64,000 nt of DNA, taken from a virus. The translations under genes and the position numbers were made by a program. Positions 32,875 to 52,348 of the stretch are shown here, in pieces (positions within the stretch are counted from its first letter, which is position 1; each line of letters starts with the position of its first letter). A model generated the notes under the pieces. The model was not told the origin of the DNA. It saw only the letters and a list, made by a program, of their open reading frames with translations, and ran no database searches. The stretch is taken from the IMG/VR virus record IMGVR_UViG_3300046008_000291, positions 96,001 to 160,000 of that record, one strand, 5' to 3'.

Positions 32875-32879
32875 AACAG

Positions 32880-32886
32880 ATAAATA
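32880..32886 (+). promoter_or_regulatory. T4-type late promoter (ATAAATA)
   Basis: ATAAATA 20 nt before the ATG at 32907. Confidence 0.6.
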
Positions 32887-32906
32887 ATACATAATAGGTA
32901 AAGATA

Positions 32907-35181: not shown

Positions 35182-35210
35182 TTGACAACTTAATACAAAT
35201 GTCTTATACT
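35182..35210 (+). promoter_or_regulatory. Near-consensus sigma70 promoter TTGACA-17 bp-TATACT
   Basis: TTGACA at 35182-35187, 17-bp spacer, TATACT at 35205-35210, immediately after the stop of the last structural gene. Confidence 0.85.
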
Positions 35211-35241
35211 ATAGGTAAGTTATTTTGACTTACCTATTTTT
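35211..35241 (+). terminator. Intrinsic terminator ending the late structural transcript
   Basis: Perfect 10-bp stem ATAGGTAAGT (35211-35220) / ACTTACCTAT (35228-35237), 7-nt loop, then a short T run to 35241. Confidence 0.65.
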
Positions 35242-35257: not shown

Positions 35258-35575
35258 ATGACAACAGAAATTACTCAACTAGTTGCTCAAATTAAACAAG
35301 CAACGGATTATCAAACCAACAAACGCATACTTAAAGAAAAAATACAAACGGATTTACATGTTCCGTATAACAATGGACTCTTTAAAGTAACACCGGAACT
35401 TATAGCATTCCTATCAACTTGGACTGCTGATACTTTATATCTTGAAGATACCTACGAAAATCCTATAGAAATACAACGACTAGCATTTTTAGAATTGTGT
35501 CGGCAACACTATCAACAAGTTATGAACGAATGGCATATTCAATATGACGAAATCCGACGTGCCCGCAAAGTCTAA
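35258..35575 (+). CDS. Hypothetical protein (105 aa)
   Basis: ORF-track TTG start at 35225 falls inside the hairpin; ATG at 35258 is preferred. Overlaps the next gene. Confidence 0.7.
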   Translation: MTTEITQLVAQIKQATDYQTNKRILKEKIQTDLHVPYNNGLFKVTPELIAFLSTWTADTLYLEDTYENPIEIQRLAFLELCRQHYQQVMNEWHIQYDEIRRARKV

Positions 35576-36320
35576 AGGTGTTGTATTATTTGCTGTTAAC
35601 ACTGCCACAGTCGATTATGTTCGAATCGCTGAGCAGGCCGCACGTTTAATTAAACATACTCTAAACTTACCTACTACCATTATCACAGATCCGGGCGTAC
35701 CTAGTTTAAGTAACTATCGCACCGGCCATGCTGGCGGCACAGAATGGAAGAACGGTGGCAGATATCGTGCGTACGAACTTAGTCCCTATGATGAAACTAT
35801 CTTACTTGACAGTGACTACCTACAGTTAGATACAAGTTTATTAACCATACTCGAAACCACTGTCGATTATAAGTTAATGCACTACAACCAAAGCCCTCAA
35901 CAGTCAATGTCGGGCAACATGGGTCAGTTAAGTTTAGATTATGTATGGGCCACTGCTATAACATTTAAGCGTACAGATAAAACACAAATGTTATTTGATC
36001 TAGTTGGTCGTATCGAACGTAACTATGCTTACTATCAAAAACTATATCACTTAAGAGAACGTAATTTCCGCAATGATTATGCGTTTGCCATTGCCAACAA
36101 CATTATTAATGGGTACACTACTAACACTACACAAAGTATACCTTTTACCATGTTAACCTTGGATAAACTAATTAAAAACATTGAAATAACAGGCGAAAAG
36201 ATGATTATACGCGAAGAAAATTCTGCACATGTCATTGCCCTGCAAAACATACACGTAATGGATAAAGATTATTTGCTTAGTGAAAAGTTTGATCAATTGG
36301 TGGACACAGTATGCGCATAA
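35544..36320 (+). CDS. GT-A fold glycosyltransferase-like protein (GT8-like)
   Basis: KGVVLFAVN..VDYV..A; LSPYDETILLDSDYL with a DxD motif; RNDYAFAIA. Confidence 0.62.
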   Translation: MTKSDVPAKSKGVVLFAVNTATVDYVRIAEQAARLIKHTLNLPTTIITDPGVPSLSNYRTGHAGGTEWKNGGRYRAYELSPYDETILLDSDYLQLDTSLLTILETTVDYKLMHYNQSPQQSMSGNMGQLSLDYVWATAITFKRTDKTQMLFDLVGRIERNYAYYQKLYHLRERNFRNDYAFAIANNIINGYTTNTTQSIPFTMLTLDKLIKNIEITGEKMIIREENSAHVIALQNIHVMDKDYLLSEKFDQLVDTVCA

Positions 36321-37168
36321 CACCACATCAAGCACAGCAGGGGTTTATGACCATTGCGCAGAATACAGCAGAGGTTGATTACTTACAGCTTGCTTACGTA
36401 CAAGCAATGAGTATTAAACTGACCATGCCTGGCAGTTCGTACGCAGTAGCAGTTGATAAGAATACACTTGAACAGGTAACAGAACAACATCGAAAGGTGT
36501 TTGATTATGTAGTTACTATTGACAATGACCTAGCCCAAGACGAAACTTGGAAGTTATCAAATGAATGGCAGGCATTTTATCTCACACCATTCAAAGAAAC
36601 AATTAAACTCGAAAGTGACATTGTATTCACTAGAAGTATTGCGCATTGGTGGACTGCTTTTAGATTAAAGAATGTTGTACTAAGCACAGGATGTAGAGAT
36701 TATCAGCAAGAGTTAAGCGCATCACGAGAATACAGAAAGTTATTCGACGATAATGAATTGCCCGATACTTACAACGGGCTAATGTATTTTAGATACAGTC
36801 GTGAAGCCACTGAATTCTTTATGTTAGCAGAACAAATATTTAAAAATTGGGCCTATCTACGTGACAACGTATTACTTAACTGTCGCGATGATAATCCTAC
36901 TACCGATGTTGTTTATGCTCTAACTGCAAAGTTACTTGGTGTAGAAGATTGCACATTGCCCAGCTTAGATTTTATTAATTTTGTACATATGAAGCCGGCA
37001 ATTAACGCATGGACCAGTACACCCTGGCCTGAGTTAGTTGTATGCGAAACAGACTTACCAATGATACGTATTGCCAACACCAATCAATATCACCCCATAC
37101 ACTATCATGAAAAGTCCTGGGTAACACCTGAATTAATCAAGGAGTATGAACATGAACTCTTTAAGTGA
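36311..37168 (+). CDS. GT-A fold glycosyltransferase-like protein, paralogue of 35544 (GT8-like)
   Basis: QGFMTIAQN..VDYLQLA; LTPFKETIKLESDIVF (ExD at the DxD position); YNGLMYF; TDVVYAL; FVHMKP. Confidence 0.6.
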   Translation: MRITPHQAQQGFMTIAQNTAEVDYLQLAYVQAMSIKLTMPGSSYAVAVDKNTLEQVTEQHRKVFDYVVTIDNDLAQDETWKLSNEWQAFYLTPFKETIKLESDIVFTRSIAHWWTAFRLKNVVLSTGCRDYQQELSASREYRKLFDDNELPDTYNGLMYFRYSREATEFFMLAEQIFKNWAYLRDNVLLNCRDDNPTTDVVYALTAKLLGVEDCTLPSLDFINFVHMKPAINAWTSTPWPELVVCETDLPMIRIANTNQYHPIHYHEKSWVTPELIKEYEHELFK

Positions 37169-37502
37169 ATTTGAAAAAGCATTGGCCATGCTCAAACCCA
37201 TTGTAGAAGAAGTTAAAGAATATAGATTGCACTATGATGAACTTGGAATCATTACAATGTGTACAATGATCAATCACCCAACGGATACTAACTATATTGT
37301 TGTTAGTCGAGATGAATATGACAACTATTTCCGTTATACAATTGTAGATAATAAGCTGAAAAAGATTGACAACAACCCTGGTTATCGTGTACAATTAGCT
37401 AGTAGTACCACTGGCTACGCCACAGTAAAGAAACATGCAGGAATACTAATAGAACCAACTGACACCTATCAGGATATAGAATACTATGACACAAATCGTT
37501 GA
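37146..37502 (+). CDS. Hypothetical protein
   Basis: 118-aa ORF overlapping both neighbours; no recognisable motif. Confidence 0.7.
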   Translation: MNMNSLSEFEKALAMLKPIVEEVKEYRLHYDELGIITMCTMINHPTDTNYIVVSRDEYDNYFRYTIVDNKLKKIDNNPGYRVQLASSTTGYATVKKHAGILIEPTDTYQDIEYYDTNR

Positions 37503-38382
37503 TATAGCAGATTTAGCCTGCATCTATCTAAGCTACGATGAACCTAAGAAAGAAGAATTTTGGATCAAGATTCAAAACATGGTTCCGTGGGCTAAACGTG
37601 TAGATGGGGTTAAGGGCAGTGATGCTGCCCACAAAGCCGCGGCGGCTGCCAGCGACACCGAACGCTTTGTATTAATAGATGGCGATAACTTGCCCGATCC
37701 AGAATTCTTCAACCTGCAACTTACACTGGATGATACCAATCGAGATGTAGTATTCCGTTGGAAGGCTCGTAATCACATCAACGGACTTATGTACGGCAAT
37801 GGTGGCATGAGTTGTTGGACCAAGGACTTTGTCAACAACATGCGCACACACGAAGCCAGTGATGGTGCAGATGATACAGCTATCGAGTTTTGCTTTGACC
37901 CACGCTATTGGGCAATGAATGATTGCTACAGTACAACATACCCAAATCAAAGTTCATATCAAGCCTGGCGAGCTGGATTCCGTGAAGGTGTTAAGATGTG
38001 CTTGGATCGTGGCACAAAGCCAAGCCTTGGTGAATTTGAGCGACGTGTACACGCACGCAACTATGATCACTTGAGCATATGGCACAATGTGGGCATGGAT
38101 GTAGAGAATGGTGACTGGGCTATGTATGGTGCTAAACTAGGCACATATATGACCATGATTACGGATTGGGACTACAGAGAAGTACAGGACTTTGATGCAC
38201 TGAATCGTATCTGGGAGCAAAACAAAGTATTAAATCTAGTAGAAGAATGTAACGAAATGTCACATACATTAAGTGTAAAATTAGGATTGCCTGCTCCGCA
38301 TTTTACAGCGGCGCAGAGTAGATTTTTCAAACATCACTACAAGAGCGTATTTAAGAACAAAGGTATAATGTCGAGAGAATGA
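37486..38382 (+). CDS. Glycosyltransferase (GT-A, GT2-like)
   Basis: IYLSYDEP, VDGVKGSDAAHKAAA, FVLIDGDN (DxD), YGNGG, AWRAGFREGVKM. Confidence 0.68.
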   Translation: MTQIVDIADLACIYLSYDEPKKEEFWIKIQNMVPWAKRVDGVKGSDAAHKAAAAASDTERFVLIDGDNLPDPEFFNLQLTLDDTNRDVVFRWKARNHINGLMYGNGGMSCWTKDFVNNMRTHEASDGADDTAIEFCFDPRYWAMNDCYSTTYPNQSSYQAWRAGFREGVKMCLDRGTKPSLGEFERRVHARNYDHLSIWHNVGMDVENGDWAMYGAKLGTYMTMITDWDYREVQDFDALNRIWEQNKVLNLVEECNEMSHTLSVKLGLPAPHFTAAQSRFFKHHYKSVFKNKGIMSRE

Positions 38383-39251
38383 GATTACACGATACTAATT
38401 TAGTAAAGTATTTTTCATATATCCCAGAAGTTTGGCGAACTTATCCTGTTTATCCATATAATTTCATTGATCGAAATTCAAATACATTAGTGGTTACCAT
38501 TGGTGACAGCTGGACATTTGGTGCTGATATTTGTCTAGATGATTATGCAATGTCTCAGGAAAGATTAGACAAGATGTATGGAAACATCGTTGCATCTAAC
38601 TTGGGTGCCGACTTCTTAAGCCTGGGACAGAGTGGTACTTGTAATTTATATATAATTAATAAAATAACAGAATTAGACACCCTTATTCCGCAATTGGATT
38701 ATACTAATATTATAATCATATGCACATTTACCGAAGCATGTCGAACATTCGATGGACCGTTTGACAAACACAACGATTATGTCACGTGGTTTAGTAACCA
38801 AACATTTGATTCAGTTGATAAGTTTGATTCTATTATAAAATATCATAATGGACTACAACAGGATTCAATAGTTGAATTAGCTGCAAAATATCAACACGTT
38901 AAAGTAATAGTGGGTACTAACTTTGTTGATCCTATTGGCATGAATCCAGCTATAACAATCTTATCTAAAAGTTGGCTGCAGGTATACAGCGAACAAATAA
39001 TTAATCAAGAATATCTCGGTCATTGTTATATTATGTCGCATTGGGTATTGGACAAACTGCCCGGAATCATTACTGGATTTAAACCAGATATAGATCGAAC
39101 TTTATTATTGCAGTGGATGTGTGGATTAACTGAATCAGCAATGACACGAAAACAATTAGTATCAGACTCCTGTTATTTTAGAGGAATCAATCATCCACTT
39201 GCTGAAGGTCATCGAGTATGGGCTGATTATCTATTAGAGCAACTGCAATGA
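38379..39251 (+). CDS. SGNH/GDSL-like hydrolase or acyltransferase
   Basis: VVTIGDSWTFG (block I), LGQSGTCN, C-terminal NHPLAEGH. Confidence 0.65.
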   Translation: MRLHDTNLVKYFSYIPEVWRTYPVYPYNFIDRNSNTLVVTIGDSWTFGADICLDDYAMSQERLDKMYGNIVASNLGADFLSLGQSGTCNLYIINKITELDTLIPQLDYTNIIIICTFTEACRTFDGPFDKHNDYVTWFSNQTFDSVDKFDSIIKYHNGLQQDSIVELAAKYQHVKVIVGTNFVDPIGMNPAITILSKSWLQVYSEQIINQEYLGHCYIMSHWVLDKLPGIITGFKPDIDRTLLLQWMCGLTESAMTRKQLVSDSCYFRGINHPLAEGHRVWADYLLEQLQ

Positions 39252-40213
39252 ATACGTATACACTACAATTAGAAAATGATCAGTTGCACAATATTACTCC
39301 ATTTATTAAATTCTGCCGTGATCACGAACATACAGATATTAAGTTAATTGTAAATCAAGAATCACATTGCTTGCAATTTTGTGGAGTGTATGCAATACTC
39401 GATTTATTTACATTTACCTCAGTTACTATTGTCACTGCTAATGCTGTTGAATGCCACGATAGATATAGAATTGTTATTAATTGGGCATATTGGTTAAAAC
39501 AATCTAGAAAATTTAAAACATCAAATGACTATACGTGGAATCAAACAAAAATATTTGGATGTTTTTACGGAAGACCTAGTGCACCTCGGGTTGGCATTGC
39601 AGGCCATTTAGCGCAACATTATAATGACAAAAGTTTATTACAATTAAGATTTAATACAGACAGTGAAGATACACGCAAGTTGGTTGATATACAAAAACTA
39701 TTTGCCTGGGATATAACTGGCGCAGCTAAATTAGATCAGTTGGTGCAAAATAAAGAACAATATTTTCAACCTATACCTGCATACGAGTACACCACTGGTA
39801 GTTACGATTACAATAGTGATCTTAATAACCTATACAAAAATATTTTTGTAGATATTGTAGTCGAAGCTACAACTTTAGGTAATACATTTTATCCTACTGA
39901 AAAGATTGCACGTGCAATATTGTGTAGAAAACCTTTTATTGTCATGGCATCTAAATTTTATCTTGGCTATTTAAAACAAATAGGATTTAAAACGTTTGAT
40001 GAATATTGGCCCGAGCTATATGATAACGCAGATGGTAAAGCACGATATCTTGCTATCTTAGAATTAATTGATCGTCTGGCAAAATTATCAACAGCAGAGT
40101 TGGTAGAGTTAAATATTAAAATGCAACACACTATAGAATATAATCGTCAGTTATTAATAGCTCAACAATATAACAAGCAGGTTACAAGAATCATTCCGCA
40201 TTATGAAAACTAA
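39248..40213 (+). CDS. Glycosyltransferase-like protein (GT10 fucosyltransferase-like motif)
   Basis: VDIVVEAT...FYPTEKIARAILCRKPFIV resembles the GT10 YxTEK motif. Confidence 0.45.
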   Translation: MNTYTLQLENDQLHNITPFIKFCRDHEHTDIKLIVNQESHCLQFCGVYAILDLFTFTSVTIVTANAVECHDRYRIVINWAYWLKQSRKFKTSNDYTWNQTKIFGCFYGRPSAPRVGIAGHLAQHYNDKSLLQLRFNTDSEDTRKLVDIQKLFAWDITGAAKLDQLVQNKEQYFQPIPAYEYTTGSYDYNSDLNNLYKNIFVDIVVEATTLGNTFYPTEKIARAILCRKPFIVMASKFYLGYLKQIGFKTFDEYWPELYDNADGKARYLAILELIDRLAKLSTAELVELNIKMQHTIEYNRQLLIAQQYNKQVTRIIPHYEN

Positions 40214-41597
40214 AAGCGACTTTATGTCAACGGCAGAAGAAATGAAGGACAAGTTAGGTCCTGCACTCTGCTTGGCTAAATGGCAACAGGTAAGTCTACA
40301 CTTGCCTACAGGACTTACTAATAGTTGCTATCATCCACCGTTACATGAAATTGATAGTGCACCGCTAGTGTTTAACCCGGGTGCCTTACACAATACAGCA
40401 CATAAAAAACAACAGCGTAAACTTATGTTAGAGCAACAACGTCCAACAGAATGTAGCTACTGTTGGAGTGCAGAAGACAATAAGCAACTAAGTGATAGAC
40501 ACTATCGTAGTGGTGAGCCATGGGCAGCTGAACACTACGAAACTATAGTAAATGCACCTTGGGATCAAGACGTTGTACCAAGTTATGTTGAAGTAAACTT
40601 CAGTCACGGCTGTAACCTAGCCTGTAGCTATTGCAGTCCACAGTATAGTACAGAGTGGGGCAAAGATATTGACCGATGGGGAGCATATCCTACTAGCACT
40701 CCACACAATGCACCTGAACATTTTGAAGGCAGACGTAAGCCTATTCCTGTACGTGCGGAAAATCCCTATGTAGAAGCATTTTGGCGTTGGTGGCCAGAAC
40801 TGTACGGCAGTTTAAAACACTTCCGTATGACGGGTGGCGAACCCCTGATGGATAAGAATACGCATCGTGTGTTTGATTACATACTTGCCCTGCCTAAGAG
40901 TGATCTACACGTTGACGTAACCAGTAACTTTAGTGTGGATAGTAATCTGTTTAAGAAATACATAGATAAAGTTAAGCAACTATGTGAAGGTGAACGCATT
41001 GAACATTTTATGCAGTATGTTAGCCTAGACACAGGCAACAGCGAGCATGCAGAATATATTCGCGACGGTCTACATTATTTTAGATGTATGTCTTATGCGC
41101 ATCAATTTCTAACTGACATTCCTTATCGCAATAGTCTAACGTTTATTATCACAATGAATAATTTAAACATACTAGGATTGCGACAATTACTTGAATCGAT
41201 ATTAGAGATGCGTAAAAAATACAGTTCGACCTATCAACGTGTATGGTTTGATACACCGTTGTTACGCAGTCCAACATATCAAAGTTTACAAATATTACCA
41301 GCAAGTTATGTTCGCATATTAGAAGATGTTGTTACCTTTATGCGAGCAAATCAGGCAGACGAAACAGCTGATAACTTCGAAGGCTTTAAAGATTATGAAA
41401 TACAACGTATGGAACGTAATGTTGAATGGATGAAACAAGGTTGCGAACTTGCCGCAGACTATGTTACAATACAAAGAGCAGACTTTTATAAGTTCTTCAA
41501 TGAATACGATAAACGCAGAGGATTAATATTTTTGGAAACGTTCCCACAAATGAAAGAGTTTTGGCAGGAGTGCAAATATCATGCCGAAAATAGCTAA
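40203..41597 (+). CDS. Radical SAM protein with N-terminal twitch/SPASM-like domain
   Basis: CNLACSYC, TGGEP; N-terminal LCLAKW...SCYHP and ECSYCW. Confidence 0.9.
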   Translation: MKTKSDFMSTAEEMKDKLGPALCLAKWQQVSLHLPTGLTNSCYHPPLHEIDSAPLVFNPGALHNTAHKKQQRKLMLEQQRPTECSYCWSAEDNKQLSDRHYRSGEPWAAEHYETIVNAPWDQDVVPSYVEVNFSHGCNLACSYCSPQYSTEWGKDIDRWGAYPTSTPHNAPEHFEGRRKPIPVRAENPYVEAFWRWWPELYGSLKHFRMTGGEPLMDKNTHRVFDYILALPKSDLHVDVTSNFSVDSNLFKKYIDKVKQLCEGERIEHFMQYVSLDTGNSEHAEYIRDGLHYFRCMSYAHQFLTDIPYRNSLTFIITMNNLNILGLRQLLESILEMRKKYSSTYQRVWFDTPLLRSPTYQSLQILPASYVRILEDVVTFMRANQADETADNFEGFKDYEIQRMERNVEWMKQGCELAADYVTIQRADFYKFFNEYDKRRGLIFLETFPQMKEFWQECKYHAENS

Positions 41598-42957
41598 CGA
41601 AACAGATTTAGAATATAAGCGCAGAGTAATTGACATTAAGTCAGAATCATTCTGCGCGGCTAAATGGTATAACGCTACTATATGGTTAGGGTCAGGACAG
41701 ACTACCAGCTGTCATCACCCATTGCCGCATGCTATTGACCTAGAAGCAATTAAAACTAATCCCAGTGCTATCCATAACACTCCGCAAAAGAAATTAGAGC
41801 GTAAACAGATGCAGGTAGGTGATCGTCCTAGCGGATGCGAATACTGCTGGAAGATTGAAGACATGTATAAAGATCCTAAGTATGATGGGGTTGATGTACC
41901 AACTCCTATTAGTGATCGTGTGTACAAAACTGTAATTTATAACGATGAGGATTTAAACTATGCATACAATTTACCTTCGGATCAAGATGTTAACCTCCGG
42001 ACTTTGGAAATCGCCTTTGACCGCACTTGTCAGTTTGCTTGTAGCTACTGTAACCCTGCATTTAGCACTACTTGGGTTAAAGACATTCGGAATAACGGTG
42101 CCTACACCGATTTGGTGTCGGATGGACGTAACCACTTTACTCATACTCATGATAGCAATCAATTGTTTAAGCTCGATGAAGTTAATCCTTATGTCGAAGC
42201 GTTCTTCAAATGGTGGGAAACAGACCTGCACAAGACGTTAAAAGAACTGCGCATCACAGGTGGCGAACCGTTAATGTCAGGATACACCTGGCGTCTAATA
42301 GAATGGTTTCAAAAGAACAAAGGACAAAGTACTACACGTCTTGCTATCAATAGTAATTTAGGATTTGAGAAAGATAAATTAGAGAGGTTATTAGATGCTA
42401 CACAAGGTATCGAATTGGATTTGTACACTAGCAATGAATCGTGGGGCCGTCATGCAATGTATATACGTGATGGCTTGGATTGGGATCAATGGGTTAGCAA
42501 TGTACAGTATCTATTGGATAGCAAGAAACTGCGAGGCCTACATGTTATGTGTACCATCAATGCTCTATGCTTACTAAGCCTTACTGATTTGTTATGGATG
42601 ATAGTAAAACTTAAACGCACTTATGGCAAGGATGCAATTAACTTTAGTCTAAACATCTTACGATTCCCTAGTTTCCAAAGTCCGTTGATCTTGCCTATGG
42701 AGATACGTGAACAAATGGCCGAAGACCTACAACAATTTGGCGAAGCGGCACACAGTGAACTACACGAATCTGAATATAATCAATTGACTAGATTGATTGA
42801 GTACTTACAGACTGTAGACAGCCCACACAGTGGAGCACTATCACGTGAGATTTTACAACGTGACTTTAAGAACTTTTATCAGCAATACGACCAGCGGCGT
42901 GGTCTAGACTTTAAATATACATTTACACAATTAGCGGACTGGTACGACACACTATGA
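41581..42957 (+). CDS. Radical SAM protein with N-terminal twitch/SPASM-like domain
   Basis: CQFACSYC, TGGEP; N-terminal FCAAKW...SCHHP and GCEYCW; close paralogue of 40203. Confidence 0.9.
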   Translation: MPKIANETDLEYKRRVIDIKSESFCAAKWYNATIWLGSGQTTSCHHPLPHAIDLEAIKTNPSAIHNTPQKKLERKQMQVGDRPSGCEYCWKIEDMYKDPKYDGVDVPTPISDRVYKTVIYNDEDLNYAYNLPSDQDVNLRTLEIAFDRTCQFACSYCNPAFSTTWVKDIRNNGAYTDLVSDGRNHFTHTHDSNQLFKLDEVNPYVEAFFKWWETDLHKTLKELRITGGEPLMSGYTWRLIEWFQKNKGQSTTRLAINSNLGFEKDKLERLLDATQGIELDLYTSNESWGRHAMYIRDGLDWDQWVSNVQYLLDSKKLRGLHVMCTINALCLLSLTDLLWMIVKLKRTYGKDAINFSLNILRFPSFQSPLILPMEIREQMAEDLQQFGEAAHSELHESEYNQLTRLIEYLQTVDSPHSGALSREILQRDFKNFYQQYDQRRGLDFKYTFTQLADWYDTL

Positions 42958-45512
42958 GCGATGAGCCAAGCAAGAAATTAACAGTACATCATAAAAATCA
43001 CAATTACAATACTCGTAAACCTGTGTATATACATGAAGATGATTTAACAGAAGATCATACATATAAATTAATAGAAAGTAAACATTTCTGTATGATACCA
43101 TGGACACACATGCACAGTATCCCTGACGGTCGTGCATACCCTTGCTGTCTGGGTGAAATGCATTTGCCAATTGGCAACTTTAAAGAAAACACCATGGCCG
43201 AAGTATGGAACGGCACTCCATATAAACAGATGCGCATAAACATGCTTGAAGACAAGCCGAGTAAAGAATGTACTCGTTGTTACGAACAAGAAGACAACGG
43301 GTTCTTTAGTATGCGTAACAGTCAAAACAAAAACTTTGGCCATCATATTGCCCTGGCAGATAAAACTAATGCCGATGGCAGTTTAGATGACTTTAAACTA
43401 CGCTACTATGACATACGCTTCTCTAATCTATGTAACTTCAGTTGCCGCACCTGCGGTAGCTTGTTCAGCAGCAGTTGGTTTGCGGAAGAAACTAAACTGT
43501 TTGGTAAATTAAATCATCCGCAAATTATGTTTTCTGGTAAAGATAAAAATGATATGTGGGAACAGATGCAGGAGCATATTCCGTACCTCGAACAGATATA
43601 CTTTGCTGGTGGCGAACCACTGATCATGGAAGAACACTATCGCATCTTAGAAGAACTAGTGCGTCGTGAAATGTTCCATGTTAGACTAGTCTATAACACA
43701 AACTTTAGTCATATGCGTCTTAAAGATAAGATGGTATTTGAGTATTGGAAACTGTTTGATGTGGTAAGTGTAGGTGCTAGTTTAGATGATTCATATCTTC
43801 GTGGAGAATACATTCGCAAGGGTCAAGACTGGGCAGAAACAGTAGAAAATCGTCGCAAAATGATTGAAATTTGCCCCAATGTTGACTTTTATGTTAGTAG
43901 TACAGTCAGTATACTCAATGCCTGGCATTTAACAGAATTCCATAAAGAATGGGTCGAGCTTGGCCTGATTAAAGCCAAGGATTGGAACGTAAACATTTTA
44001 CAGAGTCCAGAGCGTGATCGTATTGACGTGTTGCCTATACAATTTAAAGATCGTATTAAGCAACGAGTCGAAGAACATATTGCATGGCTAGAACCACAGG
44101 ATCAATTACAGCGAGCAGTGTCCGGTTATCGAGCTATTATCACATTTATGTATCAAGATGATAAGAGTCATTTATTAAAAGAATTCTTTAAGGTCAATGA
44201 TCAAACAGACGAGATGCGTAAGGAAACTTTTGAAGAAGTATTCCCTGAGTATCAAGAGTTGCGTGATCATTTAGGCATTAACAAGACGCATGATAATATC
44301 TGTATGTTACCCTGGGTTAGTATAGAAGCAAGTCCAGTGGGTACAGCTCGTCCATGTTGTCTAGCCAAAGACGAAATTACCAAGAGTGATGGTACTCCGT
44401 ATAAACTTAGAGAAAGTTCATTGGCTGAGATTTATAATAGTGAATACATGCAGGACCTGCGCCAACAATTCCGCCGCGGTGAAAAACCAGCGACGTGTAA
44501 TCGTTGTTGGAGTGAAGAAGATGCTGGTATAGTTAGTAAACGTATCAACAGTAGAATTAGACTTAAAGAGTTTTATCCTATTGTAGACTGGCGTAATGAT
44601 ACACCTGATCAACTATGGTTCATTGATCTTAAACTGGGTAATATTTGTAATCTTAAATGTCGTATCTGCGGCAGTTGGAGCAGTAGTAAATGGGCCAAGG
44701 AAGAAATTGACTACGAAGCTATAAAATATAAAGACGTGGAAGGATATGACCGTAAGCAACACGGAGCATACATGTTCCTACAAGAAGGTACGTGGCCCAG
44801 AGACAATGATATATTTTGGGATAACTTAAAAGCACTACTGCCAAACATTAAGTATTTTGAATTCACTGGTGGTGAACCATTCTTAATTGAAGAACACTTT
44901 AAACTATTGCGTTATGCAGTGGAGCACGGTTACAGTAGTCGTATTGATATACATTACAATACCAACGGCACTGTGTATCCTAACGATGAAGAAGTTGCCC
45001 TATGGAGTAAATTTAGAAATGTTGAAATTGCAGTTAGCATTGACAACACCGAAGCACGTTTTGAATATGAACGTTATGGCGCAGTGTGGGAAGAAGTAAC
45101 AGCCAATGTTGTGAAATTTAATGCCATGCGCACTGATTTAATTGCCACACAGGTCTGCATGACTGTGAACATACAAAATGTTTATTATCTACCTGAACTA
45201 TGTGATTGGGTCAATACCCAGGATTTTGACATGGTGCATTTTAATATGCTACATGACCCACATGTTATGTGTATTAACCGTATGACACCTGCGGCGCAAC
45301 GATTAGTTATAGATCGATTAACTGCTTATCCATTCACAGTTAAACATCGTGTTGAGATCGATAAAATAATTCAGTTTATTGAAAACGGCTCGGGCAGTGA
45401 TGGCACTGAATTCCTACGTAAGATGCAGGAAACTGATCAATACCGTAATCAAAGCATGTTAACCACACATAGAGAAATTGCACTAGCAATGGGATATCAT
45501 GACACCATCTAA
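42954..45512 (+). CDS. Double radical SAM protein (two twitch+rSAM units fused)
   Basis: Unit 1: FCMIPW..PCC, CTRC, CNFSCRTC, GGEP. Unit 2: ICMLPW..PCC, CNRC, CNLKCRIC, GGEP. Confidence 0.9.
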   Translation: MSDEPSKKLTVHHKNHNYNTRKPVYIHEDDLTEDHTYKLIESKHFCMIPWTHMHSIPDGRAYPCCLGEMHLPIGNFKENTMAEVWNGTPYKQMRINMLEDKPSKECTRCYEQEDNGFFSMRNSQNKNFGHHIALADKTNADGSLDDFKLRYYDIRFSNLCNFSCRTCGSLFSSSWFAEETKLFGKLNHPQIMFSGKDKNDMWEQMQEHIPYLEQIYFAGGEPLIMEEHYRILEELVRREMFHVRLVYNTNFSHMRLKDKMVFEYWKLFDVVSVGASLDDSYLRGEYIRKGQDWAETVENRRKMIEICPNVDFYVSSTVSILNAWHLTEFHKEWVELGLIKAKDWNVNILQSPERDRIDVLPIQFKDRIKQRVEEHIAWLEPQDQLQRAVSGYRAIITFMYQDDKSHLLKEFFKVNDQTDEMRKETFEEVFPEYQELRDHLGINKTHDNICMLPWVSIEASPVGTARPCCLAKDEITKSDGTPYKLRESSLAEIYNSEYMQDLRQQFRRGEKPATCNRCWSEEDAGIVSKRINSRIRLKEFYPIVDWRNDTPDQLWFIDLKLGNICNLKCRICGSWSSSKWAKEEIDYEAIKYKDVEGYDRKQHGAYMFLQEGTWPRDNDIFWDNLKALLPNIKYFEFTGGEPFLIEEHFKLLRYAVEHGYSSRIDIHYNTNGTVYPNDEEVALWSKFRNVEIAVSIDNTEARFEYERYGAVWEEVTANVVKFNAMRTDLIATQVCMTVNIQNVYYLPELCDWVNTQDFDMVHFNMLHDPHVMCINRMTPAAQRLVIDRLTAYPFTVKHRVEIDKIIQFIENGSGSDGTEFLRKMQETDQYRNQSMLTTHREIALAMGYHDTI

Positions 45513-46584
45513 TACATTTTGTTCAGCACCATGGATGAATAGGTATATTAATCCTATCGGTGAAATGTCACCTTGTTGTTTTACTACTAATATTGAAACT
45601 GAAGCAGACATAGCAGGTCTTAAACAATCATTTATAGACGGAGAACAAGCCCTAGCTTGTAAGTATTGCTGGCATAACGAACAGCATGCGATGCCTAGCC
45701 CAAGACTTGATTTCAATGCCGCCGCTGGTGGTAAACTATCATTTGATGACGATGTATATTCTACGGCAGAAGTTAATCAGTTGTCGATTAACATAGGCAA
45801 TTATTGTAATGCCGAATGTATCATATGTAATGGTATGTCTAGTAGCAAACGAAATAATTGGTTAAAGCATCATAATAGTAAATTTCATAAAATTCATACT
45901 ATACAACGTGCTAACGATAACATTGATGATTTACCGTACTTGAACATCAAGACGCTGACTTTGCTCGGTGGCGAACCGACTATACATCCATCTACTTATA
46001 AAATTTTAGATTACTATATTAATAAAGGAATCTCAAAAAATATTTCTATTAGTCTAAATACAAATGCAAGTAAATTAGATCCGAGTCTATTAGATAAATT
46101 AAAATTATTTGACATCCTGTCGATTACCCTGAGCATAGACGGCACCGGGTCATATTTTGAATATCAGAGAAGACCAATTAAATGGAAAATTGCAAAACAG
46201 GTAGCCGAACAATGGATGACTGCCGCCGACAATATTGTAATAAATTATGTTGTCACAGCAGTTAGTATATGGGGCTTTAATGAATTTCTCACATGGTTTT
46301 CTACATTGCCACAGTATGTATTAGATAAAAAACCTACGGTAATTTTAACTCCTGTGGGAAATAATCCTTGTTTATCACTAGCTGTATTAAACGACGAACA
46401 ACGAACTAATTGGATTGATCAAGCAACTGATCACCCACTTAAACAACAGATAATTAATATCATTAACTCTACGGTATATGATAAATCATTGTTACCTCAA
46501 CTAGCTGACAAAGTCAAACTTGAAGATACCACGTCGAAAATAAAATTTGCAGATATATTCCCCAATTGGGATTTAAATGGATAA
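45499..46584 (+). CDS. Radical SAM protein with N-terminal twitch/SPASM-like domain
   Basis: FCSAPW..PCC, CKYC, CNAECIIC, LGGEP. Confidence 0.88.
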   Translation: MTPSNTFCSAPWMNRYINPIGEMSPCCFTTNIETEADIAGLKQSFIDGEQALACKYCWHNEQHAMPSPRLDFNAAAGGKLSFDDDVYSTAEVNQLSINIGNYCNAECIICNGMSSSKRNNWLKHHNSKFHKIHTIQRANDNIDDLPYLNIKTLTLLGGEPTIHPSTYKILDYYINKGISKNISISLNTNASKLDPSLLDKLKLFDILSITLSIDGTGSYFEYQRRPIKWKIAKQVAEQWMTAADNIVINYVVTAVSIWGFNEFLTWFSTLPQYVLDKKPTVILTPVGNNPCLSLAVLNDEQRTNWIDQATDHPLKQQIINIINSTVYDKSLLPQLADKVKLEDTTSKIKFADIFPNWDLNG

Positions 46585-47866
46585 ACCGCAAACACTTTGT
46601 CTAGCACCTTGGGTACATACATATCTTAGTCCGCAGACTGAGCGACGTATGTGTTGTGCTAGTCGCGAGCCTGCGCAGAACTTTGAACAGTATATAGATA
46701 CCAAGGCCGGCACTGGTAAGTATATTCCTATTACACTTGAAGAACATTGGAATAGCGAGCACATGAAGTCAGTGCGCCAGCGTATGATGGCAGGTGAAAC
46801 ACTACCTGAGTGCGAAGTGTGCAATGACAAATTGTTAAACACATCCGTTTACCGTAGTTATTTTGATAGCATGTTTGGTCATAAGTATGATAGTATATGG
46901 GACACAACAGACGCAGACGGTGCTACCACAATGCGCCCAGTCAGTTGGGATTATCGATTTAGCAATCTATGTAACTTCAAGTGTCGTATGTGCGGTGATA
47001 TGTTGTCTAGCGCATGGGAAACTGAACAGAGACAACACAACATGATCAACTGGAGTAATCCAAAGAATAATTGGATGCTACCAGAAATAAGAGATCAAAT
47101 ATCAGCATTCCAAGACAATCAAATTGAAAAAGAGTTTGCTGAAGCTGTTGAAAATCATCAAGTAGAAGAAGTATATTGGGTAGGTGGAGAGCCACTAATG
47201 TATGAACAACATTGGCGTTATATGCGACGCATTGTTGAATTAGGAGATGGTAAAAATGTCTATGCTCGTTACAACACAAACCTCAGCCGTGTCACTTACC
47301 GTGGGGCCAATCTGTATACTGATATTCTTAGTGGGCTACGTGATTGGCAGATATGTGCAAGTCTTGATGGTACGCAAGAAATTGGAGAATATATTAGAAC
47401 AGGACTTGACTATAATTCATGGCTTACAAACTTCCGTGAAGGAGTTAGAATTGCAAGTCACAGACGCCAAATGCGAATTGACTTCACTCTCACACTGCCC
47501 GGCATGTTTGAAGTCACAAACATTACCCAGCTTGCTGAAAAAGAAAACGTAGATATCTTGGCTAAGGTTGTTTTTAGCTTTAGCCCTGATATTATCCTTA
47601 GTCCACTTGCACTCCCACGCGAGTTATTACATCCATGGTTAGATGAGCTAATCCCACAAACTTCTGGAGCAATGCAGGATATACTTGTGCAGTTAAAATC
47701 ACGACCAACGTTTGACGAGCAATGGCCCGATATATACAAAGTAAGTCTTGCAGAGGGCAAGGCTCGTGTGCTACGACTAGAAAGTATACGTAATGATACA
47801 CTTACACTAGCAGACATATTAAAAGAGAGACCGGCTGTATATGAATGGTACCAAAACATTGCTTGA
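46577..47866 (+). CDS. Radical SAM protein with N-terminal twitch/SPASM-like domain
   Basis: LCLAPW..MCC, CEVC, CNFKCRMC, VGGEP. Confidence 0.9.
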   Translation: MDKPQTLCLAPWVHTYLSPQTERRMCCASREPAQNFEQYIDTKAGTGKYIPITLEEHWNSEHMKSVRQRMMAGETLPECEVCNDKLLNTSVYRSYFDSMFGHKYDSIWDTTDADGATTMRPVSWDYRFSNLCNFKCRMCGDMLSSAWETEQRQHNMINWSNPKNNWMLPEIRDQISAFQDNQIEKEFAEAVENHQVEEVYWVGGEPLMYEQHWRYMRRIVELGDGKNVYARYNTNLSRVTYRGANLYTDILSGLRDWQICASLDGTQEIGEYIRTGLDYNSWLTNFREGVRIASHRRQMRIDFTLTLPGMFEVTNITQLAEKENVDILAKVVFSFSPDIILSPLALPRELLHPWLDELIPQTSGAMQDILVQLKSRPTFDEQWPDIYKVSLAEGKARVLRLESIRNDTLTLADILKERPAVYEWYQNIA

Positions 47867-48941
47867 TCAACTTGAAATTGATCTAAAGAATGATGCAACA
47901 GGAGAATTACTGACAGTATATATTGATGTATTTGACAGTTCGCTCGGCCGTAAATGGTTATCGGCATTAAACAATCTAATAGAAAAGAACTATCACCTTG
48001 AGAAGAATTTTTGTTTTCATGGATTTGTTGAATCTGAACGTAATGCAGAATATATAACTGATCAAATTAATCAATCAATTGCAGCAATTAATCAGGCAAA
48101 TCTCGGCTATCATATCAACGATCATTTCACGGTGGCTAATACCATAGTGCCGGGAGAGATTGGCGAATTTCTCGAAGGCGGAAAACTAGTACACGATAAA
48201 TTAAATCAACTACATAGATATTTCGAAGATCTGCAGGGAGTTAGCGGTCACATGTCGGGTTATTACAATCAAGCTGATGACAGTACAAAATGGCATATCC
48301 GACAGTTAAATTTATTATGTCACGAATACGAATCTCTAGTACTAAGCATGCGCAAAGCTGTGCATGCACCCGAATGGCGTCGTCCTAGTCAATTGATGTG
48401 TTGGTTAAATGCACCACGCTTTGTATTAGACGCGGACGATTTTGAATTATTTGGAATTGAAAGTTTAAATCGTCCGGCTGGCGGCGTATTTGTAGGAGTT
48501 AATAAAGCTATTGGCAAACATCATTATGAAGTCTTTCGTGATGAAGGCGGTGCAGGCCATAGGATTGATGAATTGACTACATCAGCAATGCGCTCGCAAA
48601 CAGAAGCAGCAGGTGATTTTGATATTGAATGGGCAATTAGTCCGGGCCAGTACGATTGGATGAAAAAAGAATTAGCAGATTTTACTCAATGGTTAATAGA
48701 CAATGGATTCGACCCCGACGATAAATCATTAACTATAGGACACCCACAGGTAGGACAGGTTGATCTACAGCGAACATTCGGATCACAAGACCATAATGTA
48801 ATATGGTCACAACTGGGCCTACATCTAAACGTATATAAGTTGAGAACTAGTCAAGCGTCTGCCATTTATGAATATAATTGGTCAGATTCTGATTATCGAG
48901 ATCAACAGATACTACAGATTAAACGAGGACAAATAGCCTAA
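47841..48941 (+). CDS. Hypothetical protein (366 aa)
   Basis: Long ORF overlapping both neighbours; LNQLHRYFE and LNLLCHEYE His/Glu motifs; no family recognised. Confidence 0.75.
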   Translation: MNGTKTLLDQLEIDLKNDATGELLTVYIDVFDSSLGRKWLSALNNLIEKNYHLEKNFCFHGFVESERNAEYITDQINQSIAAINQANLGYHINDHFTVANTIVPGEIGEFLEGGKLVHDKLNQLHRYFEDLQGVSGHMSGYYNQADDSTKWHIRQLNLLCHEYESLVLSMRKAVHAPEWRRPSQLMCWLNAPRFVLDADDFELFGIESLNRPAGGVFVGVNKAIGKHHYEVFRDEGGAGHRIDELTTSAMRSQTEAAGDFDIEWAISPGQYDWMKKELADFTQWLIDNGFDPDDKSLTIGHPQVGQVDLQRTFGSQDHNVIWSQLGLHLNVYKLRTSQASAIYEYNWSDSDYRDQQILQIKRGQIA

Positions 48942-49759
48942 TGATTTTATTATCCGGCGGCGATAGTTTTACCTATGGTAGTGAACTTGCTGATGGAGTG
49001 TCGCCACATGACCCTAACGGTACAGAACCAGCATACCCGATTGTCAGTCAGAGTACTTTTCCTGCACTACTAGCTCGAGACTTTGGTATGCACTATGAAT
49101 GTGCAGCCTACCCGGGATTTAGTAACAGTGCAATTCGACGTACTGTAATGAATAGCTGTGAAAGTCTGTTAGACGTAGGGTTGGTAATAGTAACATGGAC
49201 ATTTCCTGGTAGATACGAATTTAGATTTGATTATAACACAGGAGAACGATGGGGTAACTGGTATAATTTAAACCCTTGGTCTATAATAGATAATGTAGAA
49301 GACATAAAAAAAGAATTTAAAACTGATAATACAACAATATTACAACATCATACTAATCATTTGCTACGAGCCAAACAAACAGGCACAGCAGATTTTGCTA
49401 AAACATTTTACAAACATGTTGGTTCAACTGCCTATTGGGAAACATACAATTCACTAGTAGAAATAATTATGTTACAGCAATACCTACAGTTAAAAAAGAT
49501 ACCATATATATTTTCCATGGTTGATGAAGCATTGTTAAATAACTGTACATATCTAATGAATGATGAAAATATAATAACATTGTATAATCAACTTGATTTC
49601 GATCGATGGGCAACCTTTCCGAATAATCAAGGATTTTTTACATGGGCTCGAGATTTTAAATATCCATTTGCCACAACTCATCCATTAGAACCAGCGCACA
49701 TTGATGCTGCAAAGTATATTCGGGAGAACTACAATGAATTGGTTAAAGACTTTATATAA
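48941..49759 (+). CDS. SGNH/GDSL-like hydrolase or acyltransferase
   Basis: LSGGDSFTYGSEL, AYPGFSN, VTWT, THPLEPAH. Confidence 0.68.
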   Translation: MILLSGGDSFTYGSELADGVSPHDPNGTEPAYPIVSQSTFPALLARDFGMHYECAAYPGFSNSAIRRTVMNSCESLLDVGLVIVTWTFPGRYEFRFDYNTGERWGNWYNLNPWSIIDNVEDIKKEFKTDNTTILQHHTNHLLRAKQTGTADFAKTFYKHVGSTAYWETYNSLVEIIMLQQYLQLKKIPYIFSMVDEALLNNCTYLMNDENIITLYNQLDFDRWATFPNNQGFFTWARDFKYPFATTHPLEPAHIDAAKYIRENYNELVKDFI

Positions 49760-49835
49760 CAGAATTAAATTAGAAATAACTTATCGTAAAAAATTAAAAG
49801 CATTACGTAAGCGTGATCCATTTATCTATAAGTAA
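49734..49835 (+). CDS. Small basic protein (33 aa) MNWLKTLYNRIKLEITYRKKLKALRKRDPFIYK
   Basis: Manually translated; fills the only gap in the operon, and its TAA overlaps the next ATG (TAATG). Confidence 0.7.
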   Translation: MNWLKTLYNRIKLEITYRKKLKALRKRDPFIYK

Positions 49836-50485
49836 TGCGAATATTAACCATTGGCGATAGCTTTACCTACGGCGATGAACTAGTTGATATTCAGCAGGCA
49901 TGGCCGTATGTATTACAAAATAAGTTATCCTGTGAGTTAACAAATTTAGGAAAGCCTGCTACAGGTAATACCAGCATGGTTCGAAATGTAGTAGAACATG
50001 CTAGAGATTATGATTTAATTATCGTCGCCTGGAGTCATTTTGCCCGTATTGAATTTGCCGACGAGCATGGCATTTTTGATACATGGCCCGGACATCGTGG
50101 CGTGGCGTTTACTAATAATATTGCATATAGAATGGAGTTGTTAAATTATATAAATCGTCACCACAACGATGAATATTTGTATAAACAATATCTATTGAAT
50201 ATAATTTTATTACAAACTTATGCAGATCACCTAGGCAAAAAATTGCTTATGCTTAATACGCAGATTAATTGGAATAAACTATCAGAAGATTCATACATGG
50301 AAAAGTTTGCATCTACGATTAATCGAATCGATACTCAATATTTTATTGGATGGCCAAATGAATCGATGATGGAGTGGACATTTGGCACTCCCAAAGGACC
50401 AAACGGTCACTTTTTAGCAGCAGGACATACAATAGTAGCGGATAAAATTTATGAATATATTAGGCATCTCGGCTGGGTTTCATGA
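49835..50485 (+). CDS. SGNH/GDSL-like hydrolase or acyltransferase
   Basis: LTIGDSFTYGDEL, NLGKPATGN, VAWS, GHFLAAGH. Confidence 0.68.
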   Translation: MRILTIGDSFTYGDELVDIQQAWPYVLQNKLSCELTNLGKPATGNTSMVRNVVEHARDYDLIIVAWSHFARIEFADEHGIFDTWPGHRGVAFTNNIAYRMELLNYINRHHNDEYLYKQYLLNIILLQTYADHLGKKLLMLNTQINWNKLSEDSYMEKFASTINRIDTQYFIGWPNESMMEWTFGTPKGPNGHFLAAGHTIVADKIYEYIRHLGWVS

Positions 50486-51950
50486 CGCAGCTGTAACAGT
50501 CATTCAAAATGACGAAATTGTATTTGCTGGGCATAGTGAACGCTACAGCAAAATTAAACATGACCCAAACTTATGTTCAAGTTTACTAGCAGATGCAATT
50601 TTAGAATCGGGTGCATATCCACATCAAATAGCCTACTATGAAAGACCTTGGGTTAAGAAGACACGTCAACTCTACGCTGGCCAATACAGTGAGCTAACCA
50701 AAGGCTGGAGTGTACGCAATATGATTTCCAAGGCTGCACCGTGGTTCAATCATCGAGACATTCCACTTAAAACATACAATCATCATTTAAGTCATGCGGC
50801 CGCAGGCTTTCAAACAAGTCCGTTTGACAATGCAACAGTTGTGGTAATTGATGCTATCGGTGAGTGGGACACTATTAGTATTTGGACAGCAAAGTATGTC
50901 AATGGTAAGGCACAATATACAAGAGTATGGCGCCAATTATACCCACACAGTATCGGCTTGATGTACAGTGCGTTTACCAAAGAAGTTGGACTTAAACCCT
51001 TAGACGAAGAATACATTCTAATGGGCATGGCTGGTTGGGCACAAAAAAATACAGGACGATTGAGTGACGAACTTTCTAATTGGTTAGTTGATCACGAGTT
51101 TGATCTGACATTAAAACACAATCTACATATCGGCCTGCCCGAGAATGACATGCGAGCTCGCTGGAACGACTTCGAAATTGCCGCGGCAGCTCAGACATTA
51201 GCGGAACAATTGATACATAATATTATGTACAAGGCAATGAAGTTAGCACCTAACCGTAATTTAGTATATGCTGGTGGCGTTGCTCTTAATTGTAGTGCTA
51301 ATAGAGACTTGGGAGAATACTTTGATGAAATATGGATTATGCCTAATCCTGGTGATGCTGGTAGCAGCCTTGGAGCGGCGGCCTTGGCACACGGGGGTCG
51401 ACTTAATTGGAATAATGCTTTTCTTGGCCATAATATTAGTGGCCCTTATCCTGTCACCGATGTTGTCTCCGAATTAATGACCAATAAGATCGTTGGTGTT
51501 GCTAGCGGTCGTGCAGAATTTGGACCAAGAGCATTGGGTAATCGTAGCCTATTGGCGGACCCGCGCGGTCATGATATTAAAGATCGAGTTAACTTAATTA
51601 AACATAGACAAAAGTTTAGACCTTTTGCTCCTATCATACTTGAAGAATTCGCCGATGAATATTTTGAAATGCCCAACGGCTTTGCCACAAGCAGATATAT
51701 GCAGACAACTGCAAAATGCTTGCGTCCTGATGAATTTCCTGCTATAATACATGTTGATGGTACAAGTCGAGTACAGACTGTTCCACGAGATGGCAGTGGT
51801 ATACGTGAACTATTATGCTTATGGTATACTTGGACGGGTTGCCCGATGTTGCTTAATACAAGTTTAAACATCAGAGGCGAGCCCATGGTAAATGATCGCG
51901 CTGACGCAGATCGCTTTGAAGAATTATACGGAGTTCGTGTTTTATCATGA
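50451..51950 (+). CDS. Carbamoyltransferase (NodU/CmcH/TobZ family)
   Basis: GISAGFHDAAV, HHLSHAA, DAIGE, GGVALNC, GRAEFGPRALGNRSLLADPR, FRPFAP, LLNTSLN. Confidence 0.93.
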   Translation: MNILGISAGFHDAAVTVIQNDEIVFAGHSERYSKIKHDPNLCSSLLADAILESGAYPHQIAYYERPWVKKTRQLYAGQYSELTKGWSVRNMISKAAPWFNHRDIPLKTYNHHLSHAAAGFQTSPFDNATVVVIDAIGEWDTISIWTAKYVNGKAQYTRVWRQLYPHSIGLMYSAFTKEVGLKPLDEEYILMGMAGWAQKNTGRLSDELSNWLVDHEFDLTLKHNLHIGLPENDMRARWNDFEIAAAAQTLAEQLIHNIMYKAMKLAPNRNLVYAGGVALNCSANRDLGEYFDEIWIMPNPGDAGSSLGAAALAHGGRLNWNNAFLGHNISGPYPVTDVVSELMTNKIVGVASGRAEFGPRALGNRSLLADPRGHDIKDRVNLIKHRQKFRPFAPIILEEFADEYFEMPNGFATSRYMQTTAKCLRPDEFPAIIHVDGTSRVQTVPRDGSGIRELLCLWYTWTGCPMLLNTSLNIRGEPMVNDRADADRFEELYGVRVLS

Positions 51951-52348
51951 GAATATTAATTTGTGGTCTGCCAGGCTCGGGTAAAACTACACTAGCACAT
52001 GCATTATCAACATTGATAGATTGTATATGGTACAATGCTGATGCAGTTAGAAGCAAGTATAATGATTGGGATTTTTCTGAAGAAGGCAGACTACGTCAGG
52101 CAACACGTATGAAAAAGTTAGCCGATGACAGCAACGGTCACATTGTATGTGACTTTGTTGCTCCTACCAAAGAGATACGTGATATCTTTGATGCTGACTA
52201 TGTTGTATGGATAGATACAATTAAACTAGGTAGATTCGAAGATACAAATAAAGTATTTGAGCCACCGGAGCATTACGATATACGGGTAACAGAACAAGAT
52301 GCCGCACGTTGGGCAGCTATTATTGCCAAGGAAATAAATGAAGCCTAA
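51947..52348 (+). CDS. Adenylyl-sulfate (APS) kinase-like P-loop kinase, short form
   Basis: GLPGSGKTT, NADAVR, DWDFSEEGRLRQ, DFVAP and FEPP resemble CysC motifs; only 133 aa. Confidence 0.7.
   Translation: MRILICGLPGSGKTTLAHALSTLIDCIWYNADAVRSKYNDWDFSEEGRLRQATRMKKLADDSNGHIVCDFVAPTKEIRDIFDADYVVWIDTIKLGRFEDTNKVFEPPEHYDIRVTEQDAARWAAIIAKEINEA

Follow-up and report, generated by a model that had tools for sequence, protein, structure and literature searches.

In the radical S-adenosylmethionine (SAM) enzymes that carry a SPASM or twitch domain, such as anSME, BtrN, MoaA and the maturases of ribosomally synthesized and post-translationally modified peptides (RiPPs), this auxiliary domain lies C-terminal to the catalytic core. 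The auxiliary cluster is an electron relay in BtrN and anSME and a substrate-binding site in MoaA. A family with the reverse domain order has already been catalogued in NCBIfam as NF033640 (N_Twi_rSAM, "twitch domain-containing radical SAM protein"), without assigned function, and a literature search on NF033640, N-terminal twitch or N-terminal SPASM domains found no paper assigning one. In phages, radical SAM genes have been described before: PMC5332604 reports 12 of them in one T4-like genome, and PMC7029224 describes cassettes of such genes next to GT8 genes, in the hypervariable tail-fibre region of pelagimyophages. Here, a window of 64,000 nucleotides (the whole stretch of DNA that was analysed) from the IMG/VR virus record IMGVR_UViG_3300046008_000291 was studied, in which five consecutive genes at 40203-47866 form a tandem array of NF033640 modules. 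The window is part of a 105-kb record with a CheckV completeness estimate of 29%, contains T4-type baseplate, late-sigma and virion genes, and represents one fragment of the approximately 320-375-kb genome of a T4-like jumbo phage from a lake. The array consists of paralogues whose order is fixed in related phages. The most likely role of these modules, which we hold at about even odds, is that they tailor a glycan or glycoconjugate in successive radical steps.

The initial annotation of the window had described the five consecutive genes, together with one at 4309, as sharing a layout of N-terminal cysteines, a CxxC pair, a CxxxCxxC triad and a GGEP motif. The motifs were found as described and all six open reading frames (ORFs) are open and tightly packed or overlapping; however, the five consecutive genes hold six modules, and the six genes of the window seven, because the third ORF of the array, at 42954-45512 (+ strand, 852 aa), contains two SPASM (PF13186) and two Radical_SAM (PF04055) stretches in Pfam and is thus a two-module fusion. 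Module A (40203-41597, + strand, 464 aa) is of an SC-YHP subtype and its sister, module B (41581-42957, + strand, 458 aa), of an SC-HHP subtype. The halves of the fusion, modules C (about 42954-44243) and D (about 44244-45512), belong to a PCC subtype. Module E (45499-46584, + strand, 361 aa) is the shortest copy and fills a variable slot of the array, and module F (46577-47866, + strand, 429 aa), of an MCC subtype, is the most conserved copy. Module G (4309-5625, - strand, 438 aa) is dispersed; the alternative start at 5559, used in the initial annotation, gives less overlap with the upstream gene.

All seven modules scored above the curated NF033640 cut-off of 170 bits, at about 197-393 bits and with near full-length coverage (model positions about 1-398). 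The individual scores were 273.5 bits for A, 286 for B, 393 and 334 for the two halves of the fusion, 199.8 for E, 285.7 for F and 256.6 for G. In every module Pfam placed the SPASM domain (residues 8-110) ahead of the Radical_SAM domain (from residue 97-150 or so onward), so that none of the seven follows the canonical order. Against the models of characterised equivalogs (MoaA, PqqE, QueE, NirJ, AhbC/D, viperin and anSME-like or peptide maturases) the best scores were 15-46 bits, compared with cut-offs of 130-650 bits, and none of the modules groups with MoaA, PqqE or another characterised family; such grouping had been named beforehand as the outcome that would refute the proposal, and it did not occur. 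Pfam and NCBIfam scans detected no RiPP recognition element (RRE) or PqqD-type domain in any module. In longer NF033640 members, the only additional Pfam domains were tetratricopeptide or pentapeptide repeats, next to tandem fusions. The family is large, with 2427 clusters at 50% identity found by phmmer at E<=1e-10 and at least 8000 significant metagenomic homologues in a word-based search.

A seven-way alignment of the modules revealed four invariant N-terminal cysteines (C23, C42, C84 and C87 in module A numbering), spaced as C-x17/18-C followed by CxxC, and, C-terminal to these, the invariant CxxxCxxC triad (C137, C141 and C144). Pfam order and cysteine order thus agree with the earlier claim that the auxiliary domain precedes the core. 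The GG[ED]P motif and a few core residues are likewise invariant, the GGDP variant being that of module G as previously noted, and the D..R...F(P) tail ascribed to most copies is indeed found in most, module F lacking it. Among 58 diverse homologues the CxxC pair and the CxxxCxxC triad were invariant and the first two cysteines at least 90% conserved. After the CxxC of the N-terminal domain, the alignment contains neither a further auxiliary cysteine nor a CxxCx5CxxxC second-cluster motif, and therefore the domain is assigned as a twitch domain with one auxiliary cluster and not as a full SPASM domain with two.

The 46577 protein (module F) was modelled with AlphaFold2 (AF2) with a predicted local distance difference test score (pLDDT) of 95.2 and a predicted template modelling score of 0.92. 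In this model a beta-hairpin (strands 14-17 and 23-24) and helices 54-83 stand ahead of the core, in which strands and helices alternate, and by model and alignment the last 100 residues form helices free of cysteine. The CxxxCxxC and GGE-type motifs and the partial TIM barrel of the model place the modules in the radical SAM superfamily, and the four N-terminal cysteines would be expected to meet close to the active site. When the model was compared with PDB representatives by Foldseek and in a full VIA scan, only the generic radical SAM core was aligned, with VIA Z-scores of 12.2 for SkfB, 11.9 for BlsE, 11.8 for both CteB and MoaA, 11.2 for anSME, 9.3 for DesII and 7.4 for AprD4. The best match in a PDB sequence profile search had E=6e-7, and no solved structure of the NF033640 family was found by the PDB sequence and fold searches. 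Neither sequence nor fold links the modules to BtrN, NeoN or AprD4 beyond the common core, and the resemblance to these enzymes, in aminosugar context and four-cysteine twitch domain, is one of analogy.

In order to assess the age of the paralogues, 80 viral loci were examined among at least 597 IMG/VR contigs that encode a relative of the 46577 gene, the modules of each locus being counted as hidden Markov model matches within 10 kb of this relative. Five modules were counted in 44 loci, six in 22, seven in four and eight in one. A tree of 415 modules yielded five orthogroups, represented by the genes at 40203 (A), 41581 (B) and 46577 (F) and by the two halves of the fusion (C and D). Each orthogroup occurs in 64-77 of the 80 loci (64 for A, 72 for B, 77 for F), with the order fixed; module E has orthologues in only five other loci. 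Tree support was 0.995-1.0 for A, B and F (1.0 for A) and weak for C (0.56) and D (0.27). Median identity is 53-74% inside an orthogroup and approximately 18-35% between paralogues; A and B are 33-35% identical to each other and about 18-20% identical to the other modules. As sisters, they form a clade of their own of 140 phage sequences with a support of 0.999, phage-only among the sequences sampled, which bears out the earlier separation of the SC[Y/H]HP pair as a distinct subfamily. The C-D fusion is present in only eight of the 80 loci. In each of five relatives of 320-374 kb that are 92-100% complete, the array accounts for five of the 6-11 family members, and the remainder are scattered over the genome.

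By these sequence comparisons the paralogues are old and individually conserved, which fits one distinct job per paralogue. The expanded, domain-permuted family that had been proposed is real but not new, being already curated as NF033640, of which the modules described here are new members. The further proposal that each paralogue performs a different step on a common substrate fits the separately conserved orthogroups and the sugar-handling surroundings described below, and is retained here as the leading candidate explanation.

In the mechanism considered, each module would bind a SAM-cleaving [4Fe-4S] cluster through CxxxCxxC and one auxiliary [4Fe-4S] cluster that is fully ligated by the four invariant cysteines of the twitch-type domain preceding the barrel. 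The auxiliary cluster would more likely be an electron relay than a substrate-binding site, because all four of its ligands are predicted to be protein cysteines. The modules, having separate jobs, would carry out successive and different radical steps on one sugar-bearing molecule, with dehydrogenation, epimerisation, deoxygenation and C-C chemistry as candidate steps. The target molecule may be built and decorated by the surrounding cassette, namely by the NDP-aminosugar (nucleoside diphosphate-aminosugar) operon, the glycosyltransferase-like and SGNH-like proteins, the carbamoyltransferase and the kinase.

The gene order of this cassette is shared across the 80 loci. It begins with a fibre-like gene, two small proteins with D.D motifs, the 37486 protein and modules A-D, continues with variable extra modules, module F, the 47841 protein and two SGNH-like proteins, and ends with the carbamoyltransferase, a P-loop kinase, sometimes a dCMP (deoxycytidine monophosphate) deaminase, a protein of approximately 800 aa and the NDP-sugar genes. 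The firmest sugar-related members stand downstream of the array. A NodU/CmcH-type carbamoyltransferase is encoded at 50451-51950 (+ strand; Carbam_trans_C 160.7 bits, Carbam_trans_N 136.7 bits) and was found in 73 of the 80 loci. The NDP-aminosugar operon at 55121-60667 (- strand) encodes, according to Pfam and NCBIfam, two epimerases/4,6-dehydratases of the short-chain dehydrogenase/reductase (SDR) type, two DegT aminotransferases, a PIG-L deacetylase and a GFO-type 3-dehydrogenase. As sequence assignments, the carbamoyltransferase and the NDP-sugar enzymes are solid; all matches of the operon are below the equivalog cut-offs, and therefore the exact sugar cannot be named. Within the operon the two SDR enzymes are 38% and the two DegT aminotransferases 29% identical.

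Upstream of the array, the two small proteins at 35544-37168 (+ strand), with the D.D-type motifs LDSD and LESD, are candidate GT-A glycosyltransferases by motif, gave neither a Pfam nor a PHROG match, and are syntenic in 32-39 loci. The GT2-like protein at 37486-38382 (+ strand, 298 aa), with the motif LIDGDN, occurs in 69 of the 80 loci; the Atlas cluster closest to it carries the name 'Glycosyltransferase 2-like' (score 0.99), and the protein is homologous (BLASTP E=4e-14) to the C-terminal domain of the 802-aa protein at 52753-55161 (+ strand). The latter protein, present in 64 of the 80 loci, has no Pfam, PHROG or PDB match and contains three internal repeats of the type F(W/F).V..(Q/E)N.YT.F(D/N)F.(W/F)...PW...H.(F/W)P. 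The glycosyltransferase assignments of the cassette are weak, as they depend on D.D motifs read by eye and on one Atlas cluster name. An SGNH/GDSL-like protein at 38379-39251 (+ strand) is recognised by its GDSW motif, without a family match, and occurs in only two other loci. Two paralogous SGNH/GDSL-like proteins (paralogy E=2e-7) with the motifs GGDSFTYG and IGDSFTYG are encoded at 48941-50485 (+ strand), the second giving a weak Lipase_GDSL_2 match (E=0.003), and the small P-loop kinase at 51947-52348 (+ strand) is APS-kinase-like (Pfam APS_kinase, E=6.7e-7).

The most constant partner is the 366-aa protein at 47841-48941 (+ strand), the start of which overlaps the end of module F and which was found in all 80 loci. 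It has no family, PDB sequence, Atlas or Foldseek match. Its AF2 model (pLDDT 86.7) is a beta-barrel with a long helical insert at residues 67-177 or thereabouts, and the VIA matches of this model to cyclophilins (Z about 9) are near noise level. Invariant residues lie on the helices of the insert (H125/E129 and H161/E162/E164), and in the model these His and Glu residues could form a metal site. Ten neighbouring proteins without a known family gave neither a PHROG nor a Pfam match. Module G is set apart from this cassette and is followed by genes at 1674-4256 (- strand) for a metallophosphoesterase and a protein that matches Sulfotransfer_3 weakly (E=2e-5), which hints at sulfation or phosphoester chemistry tied to module G.

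Outside the phages, NF033640 is rare in bacteria, being found in three of 201 Bacteroidota genomes sampled, and tends to be multi-copy where present. A metagenome-assembled genome of the Bacteriovoracaceae, a predatory bacterium, contains nine N_Twi_rSAM members above the cut-off, five of them in a 21-kb stretch with B12 radical SAM genes. At one locus of this genome, a carbamoyltransferase homologue, a GDSL protein and an N_Twi gene lie within 7 kb; the locus also encodes a protein of the fatty-acid-hydroxylase family. The carbamoyltransferase is 30% identical to that of the phage over 585 residues (E=1e-68) and approximately 4 kb away from the N_Twi gene. A Bacteroidota locus contains four N_Twi genes, and a GDSL-like protein, a fusion of a methyltransferase with a GT2 domain and a protein matching GT22 weakly are encoded alongside. 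On another Bacteroidota chromosome, two N_Twi copies are flanked by five PhyH-type dioxygenases and a WelO5-like enzyme, and the same locus encodes a fibre-like protein with a Peptidase_S74 endosialidase-chaperone domain that is secreted by the type IX secretion system (T9SS). The bacterial carbamoyltransferase, SGNH and glycosyltransferase partners offer the best independent support, at the level of gene content, for a sugar-bearing substrate, because the partner set of the phage recurs outside the phage lineage.

The transcriptional organization of the cassette was examined by means of promoter and terminator motifs. ATAAATA, the core of T4-type late promoters, is four-fold depleted in the window (9 observed, 37.5 expected). 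Its seven + strand occurrences (6541, 13406, 13820, 30807, 32880, 34176 and 34203) each lie 12-60 nt before a structural gene, and it appears to behave as the late-promoter core of this phage. No ATAAATA was found between 35.2 and 64 kb of the window, and of the 61 copies that the arrays of 70 relatives contain, only six are 80 nt or less away from the start of an ORF. Immediately downstream of the fibre-like gene, a sigma-70-like promoter (TTGACA-17-TATACT, 35182-35210, + strand) abuts a 12-bp hairpin followed by a T run (35211-35237), and related loci have a terminator and a -35/-10 pair at the same junction with differing sequences. Because ATAAATA is absent from 35.2 kb onward and this junction carries a sigma-70-like promoter and a terminator, we infer that host sigma-70 transcribes the cassette as a unit of the early or middle phase, apart from the late virion operons just upstream. 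RNA-library contigs from one lake sample, possibly containing DNA, cover 30-49.9 kb and break at about 35.17-35.20 kb; they are compatible with transcription and with the boundary, starts and levels not being readable from such contigs. As to the hairpin itself, a transcript from the 35182-35210 promoter would start within the 5' arm and would miss the full stem, so that late read-through from the fibre gene would end there and early transcripts would pass.

Several observations weigh against the tailoring of a glycan or glycoconjugate. The synteny is drawn from one phage lineage and amounts to roughly one observation. None of the putative glycosyltransferases of the cassette scores above a Pfam, PHROG or profile threshold; Pfam GT2 and GT8 searches found nothing on the contig, and the comparison of the 37486 protein with genuine GT2 enzymes by hhalign was insignificant (probability 0.12). 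Fold and sequence searches favour sugar-acting enzymes no more than peptide maturases, SkfB, BlsE, CteB, MoaA and anSME all having Z-scores of 11-12, and no acceptor molecule emerged from the analysis. The other bacterial neighbours are PhyH dioxygenases, a WelO5-like enzyme, B12 radical SAM proteins, UbiA, methyltransferases and a fatty-acid hydroxylase, and with the PhyH, WelO5-like, UbiA, methyltransferase and secreted fibre-like neighbours in mind a lipid, small-molecule or protein substrate has to be weighed as well. Accepting a glycan substrate, a more detailed picture can be drawn only tentatively, and we rather doubt that all of it would hold: a fixed five-enzyme radical SAM editing line, with up to 11 modules per genome, transcribed from a host-type promoter in an abundant lineage of lake jumbo phages and performing several radical transformations, so far undescribed for NF033640, on a phage-made aminosugar glycan or glycolipid, the product of which would decorate the virion or remodel the envelope of the infected cell.

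Of the other substrates, a protein has the most in its favour. The modules would then be maturases of a phage or host protein, for example of the fibre or virion protein encoded just upstream, as would be in keeping with the position of the array directly behind fibre-like genes and with the fact that peptides or proteins are the substrates of most characterised SPASM and twitch enzymes. SkfB, CteB, SuiB, TigE and anSME are among the closest neighbours by structure and sequence, but this likeness is confined to the generic core (Z 11-12) and is no better than that to BlsE or MoaA. Fibre-like genes and array are neighbours, yet a terminator and a sigma-70-like promoter divide them, and late-promoter motifs are absent from the array. 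In Bacteroidota, N_Twi genes stand beside the secreted fibre-like protein with its Peptidase_S74 chaperone and T9SS tail, and the PhyH-type oxygenase partners would also fit protein hydroxylation. The modules themselves contain no RRE domain, and the packed array has no small precursor ORF rich in Cys, Ser or Thr. Maturases that are independent of an RRE exist, so that its absence is not decisive. On balance, a role in protein maturation is regarded as unlikely.

The tailoring of a lipid, a glycolipid or a diffusible small molecule, in a secondary-metabolite-like pathway or in the remodelling of host envelope lipids, is decidedly unlikely. It draws on the bacterial loci with UbiA prenyltransferase, fatty-acid hydroxylase, WelO5-like iron/2-oxoglutarate enzyme, PhyH, B12 radical SAM methylases and methyltransferases; the phage, however, has none of the oxygenase and B12 partners seen with NF033640 in bacteria, and Pfam and NCBIfam recognised no lipid-handling or cyclitol-forming gene in its cassette. 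The apparent early expression would suit a remodelling of the host, and the set of DegT aminotransferases, PIG-L deacetylase, GFO dehydrogenase, carbamoyltransferase and radical SAM enzymes resembles aminoglycoside-type tool kits.

T4-like phages commonly glycosylate their DNA, and some pathways of thymidine hypermodification involve radical SAM enzymes. A hypermodification of DNA or nucleotides, in which the radical SAM enzymes, kinase, deaminase, carbamoyltransferase and sugar genes would decorate phage bases against restriction, is nevertheless highly improbable: it is in line with the early-type promoter, the dCMP deaminase and P-loop kinase of the same operon and a nearby ThyA, but this thymidylate synthase (TS) is a true ThyA (358 bits, equivalog cut-off 327), no second TS-fold (hydroxymethylase) gene was found on the contig or in the five 92-100% complete relatives, these relatives have no tRNA-guanine transglycosylase (TGT)/DpdA gene, and the deaminase occurs in only 24 of the 80 loci (a count limited by the 10-kb flank), so that the two routes examined, TS-fold and TGT/DpdA, are not supported by gene content. 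Two of the relatives, of 344 kb and 99-100% complete, have no TS-fold gene, and the other three and the contig encode canonical ThyA.

Some further features of the window concern the phage as a whole. Between the baseplate and the fibre-like genes, a single ORF of 4504 aa extends from 17255 to 30769 (+ strand), of which the giant VrlC-type protein of pelagimyophages (PMC7029224) may be a counterpart. At 31507-34172 (+ strand) a pair of paralogous virion-type proteins with 41% identity is encoded. The array had no megablast match among GenBank phages, and tblastn against cultured phages detected only genes with 21-24% identity, which belong to Vibrio jumbo phages and Ralstonia RsoM2USA and have uninformative neighbourhoods.

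Lake phages carry members of the large NF033640 family in fixed sets of at least five, and their orthogroups provide sequence-defined candidates for enzyme discovery, for which the NDP-sugar operon encoded alongside suggests substrates to try. The identity of the product would explain why giant aquatic phages spend at least approximately 8 kb on oxygen-sensitive Fe-S enzymes, and would tell which sugar is made during infection. If the editing line operated as pictured above, each orthogroup would represent a new radical SAM activity on carbohydrates, and the N-terminal twitch domain a new wiring of the auxiliary cluster to the active site.

In comparison with known systems, the modules are closest to NF033640 itself, which they match end to end, in domain order, in the four-cysteine N-terminal domain and in CxxxCxxC. 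This entry is a model of 'subfamily' type only, to which the phage adds a fixed array of five orthogroups, one two-module fusion and the phage-only A/B clade. With the 2-deoxy-scyllo-inosamine dehydrogenase BtrN, the cysteines of which are spaced as C-x17-C followed by CxxC, the modules have in common the pattern of one four-cysteine auxiliary cluster and, in the phage, an aminosugar gene context. However, BtrN has its twitch domain behind the core and the phage modules have theirs in front of it, and BtrN was missing from the PDB sequence and fold match lists, so that the relationship is best described as one of analogy and not of membership. The AslB-type enzyme anSME and the maturases SkfB, CteB and SuiB share the core and a homologous cysteine-rich auxiliary domain (Pfam SPASM), and some homologues of the modules are labelled 'AslB' by the Joint Genome Institute (JGI). 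The SPASM enzymes have two auxiliary clusters (7-8 Cys) in a C-terminal position, whereas the phage modules have a single predicted one in an N-terminal position, together with neither an RRE nor a precursor peptide gene. BlsE ranked second among the PDB matches in the sequence comparison (E=4e-6) as well as in the fold comparison (Z 11.9), with only the core matched; BlsE, DesII and AprD4 act on sugar nucleosides or aminosugars, without orthology to the phage modules. At the level of the genome, the phages of PMC5332604 and PMC7029224 have multiple radical SAM genes near glycosyltransferase-type genes and tail fibres, as is the case here. These reports mention the genes only, without family, architecture or function, and in contrast to the hypervariable cassettes of the pelagimyophages the core array of the lake phage is conserved.

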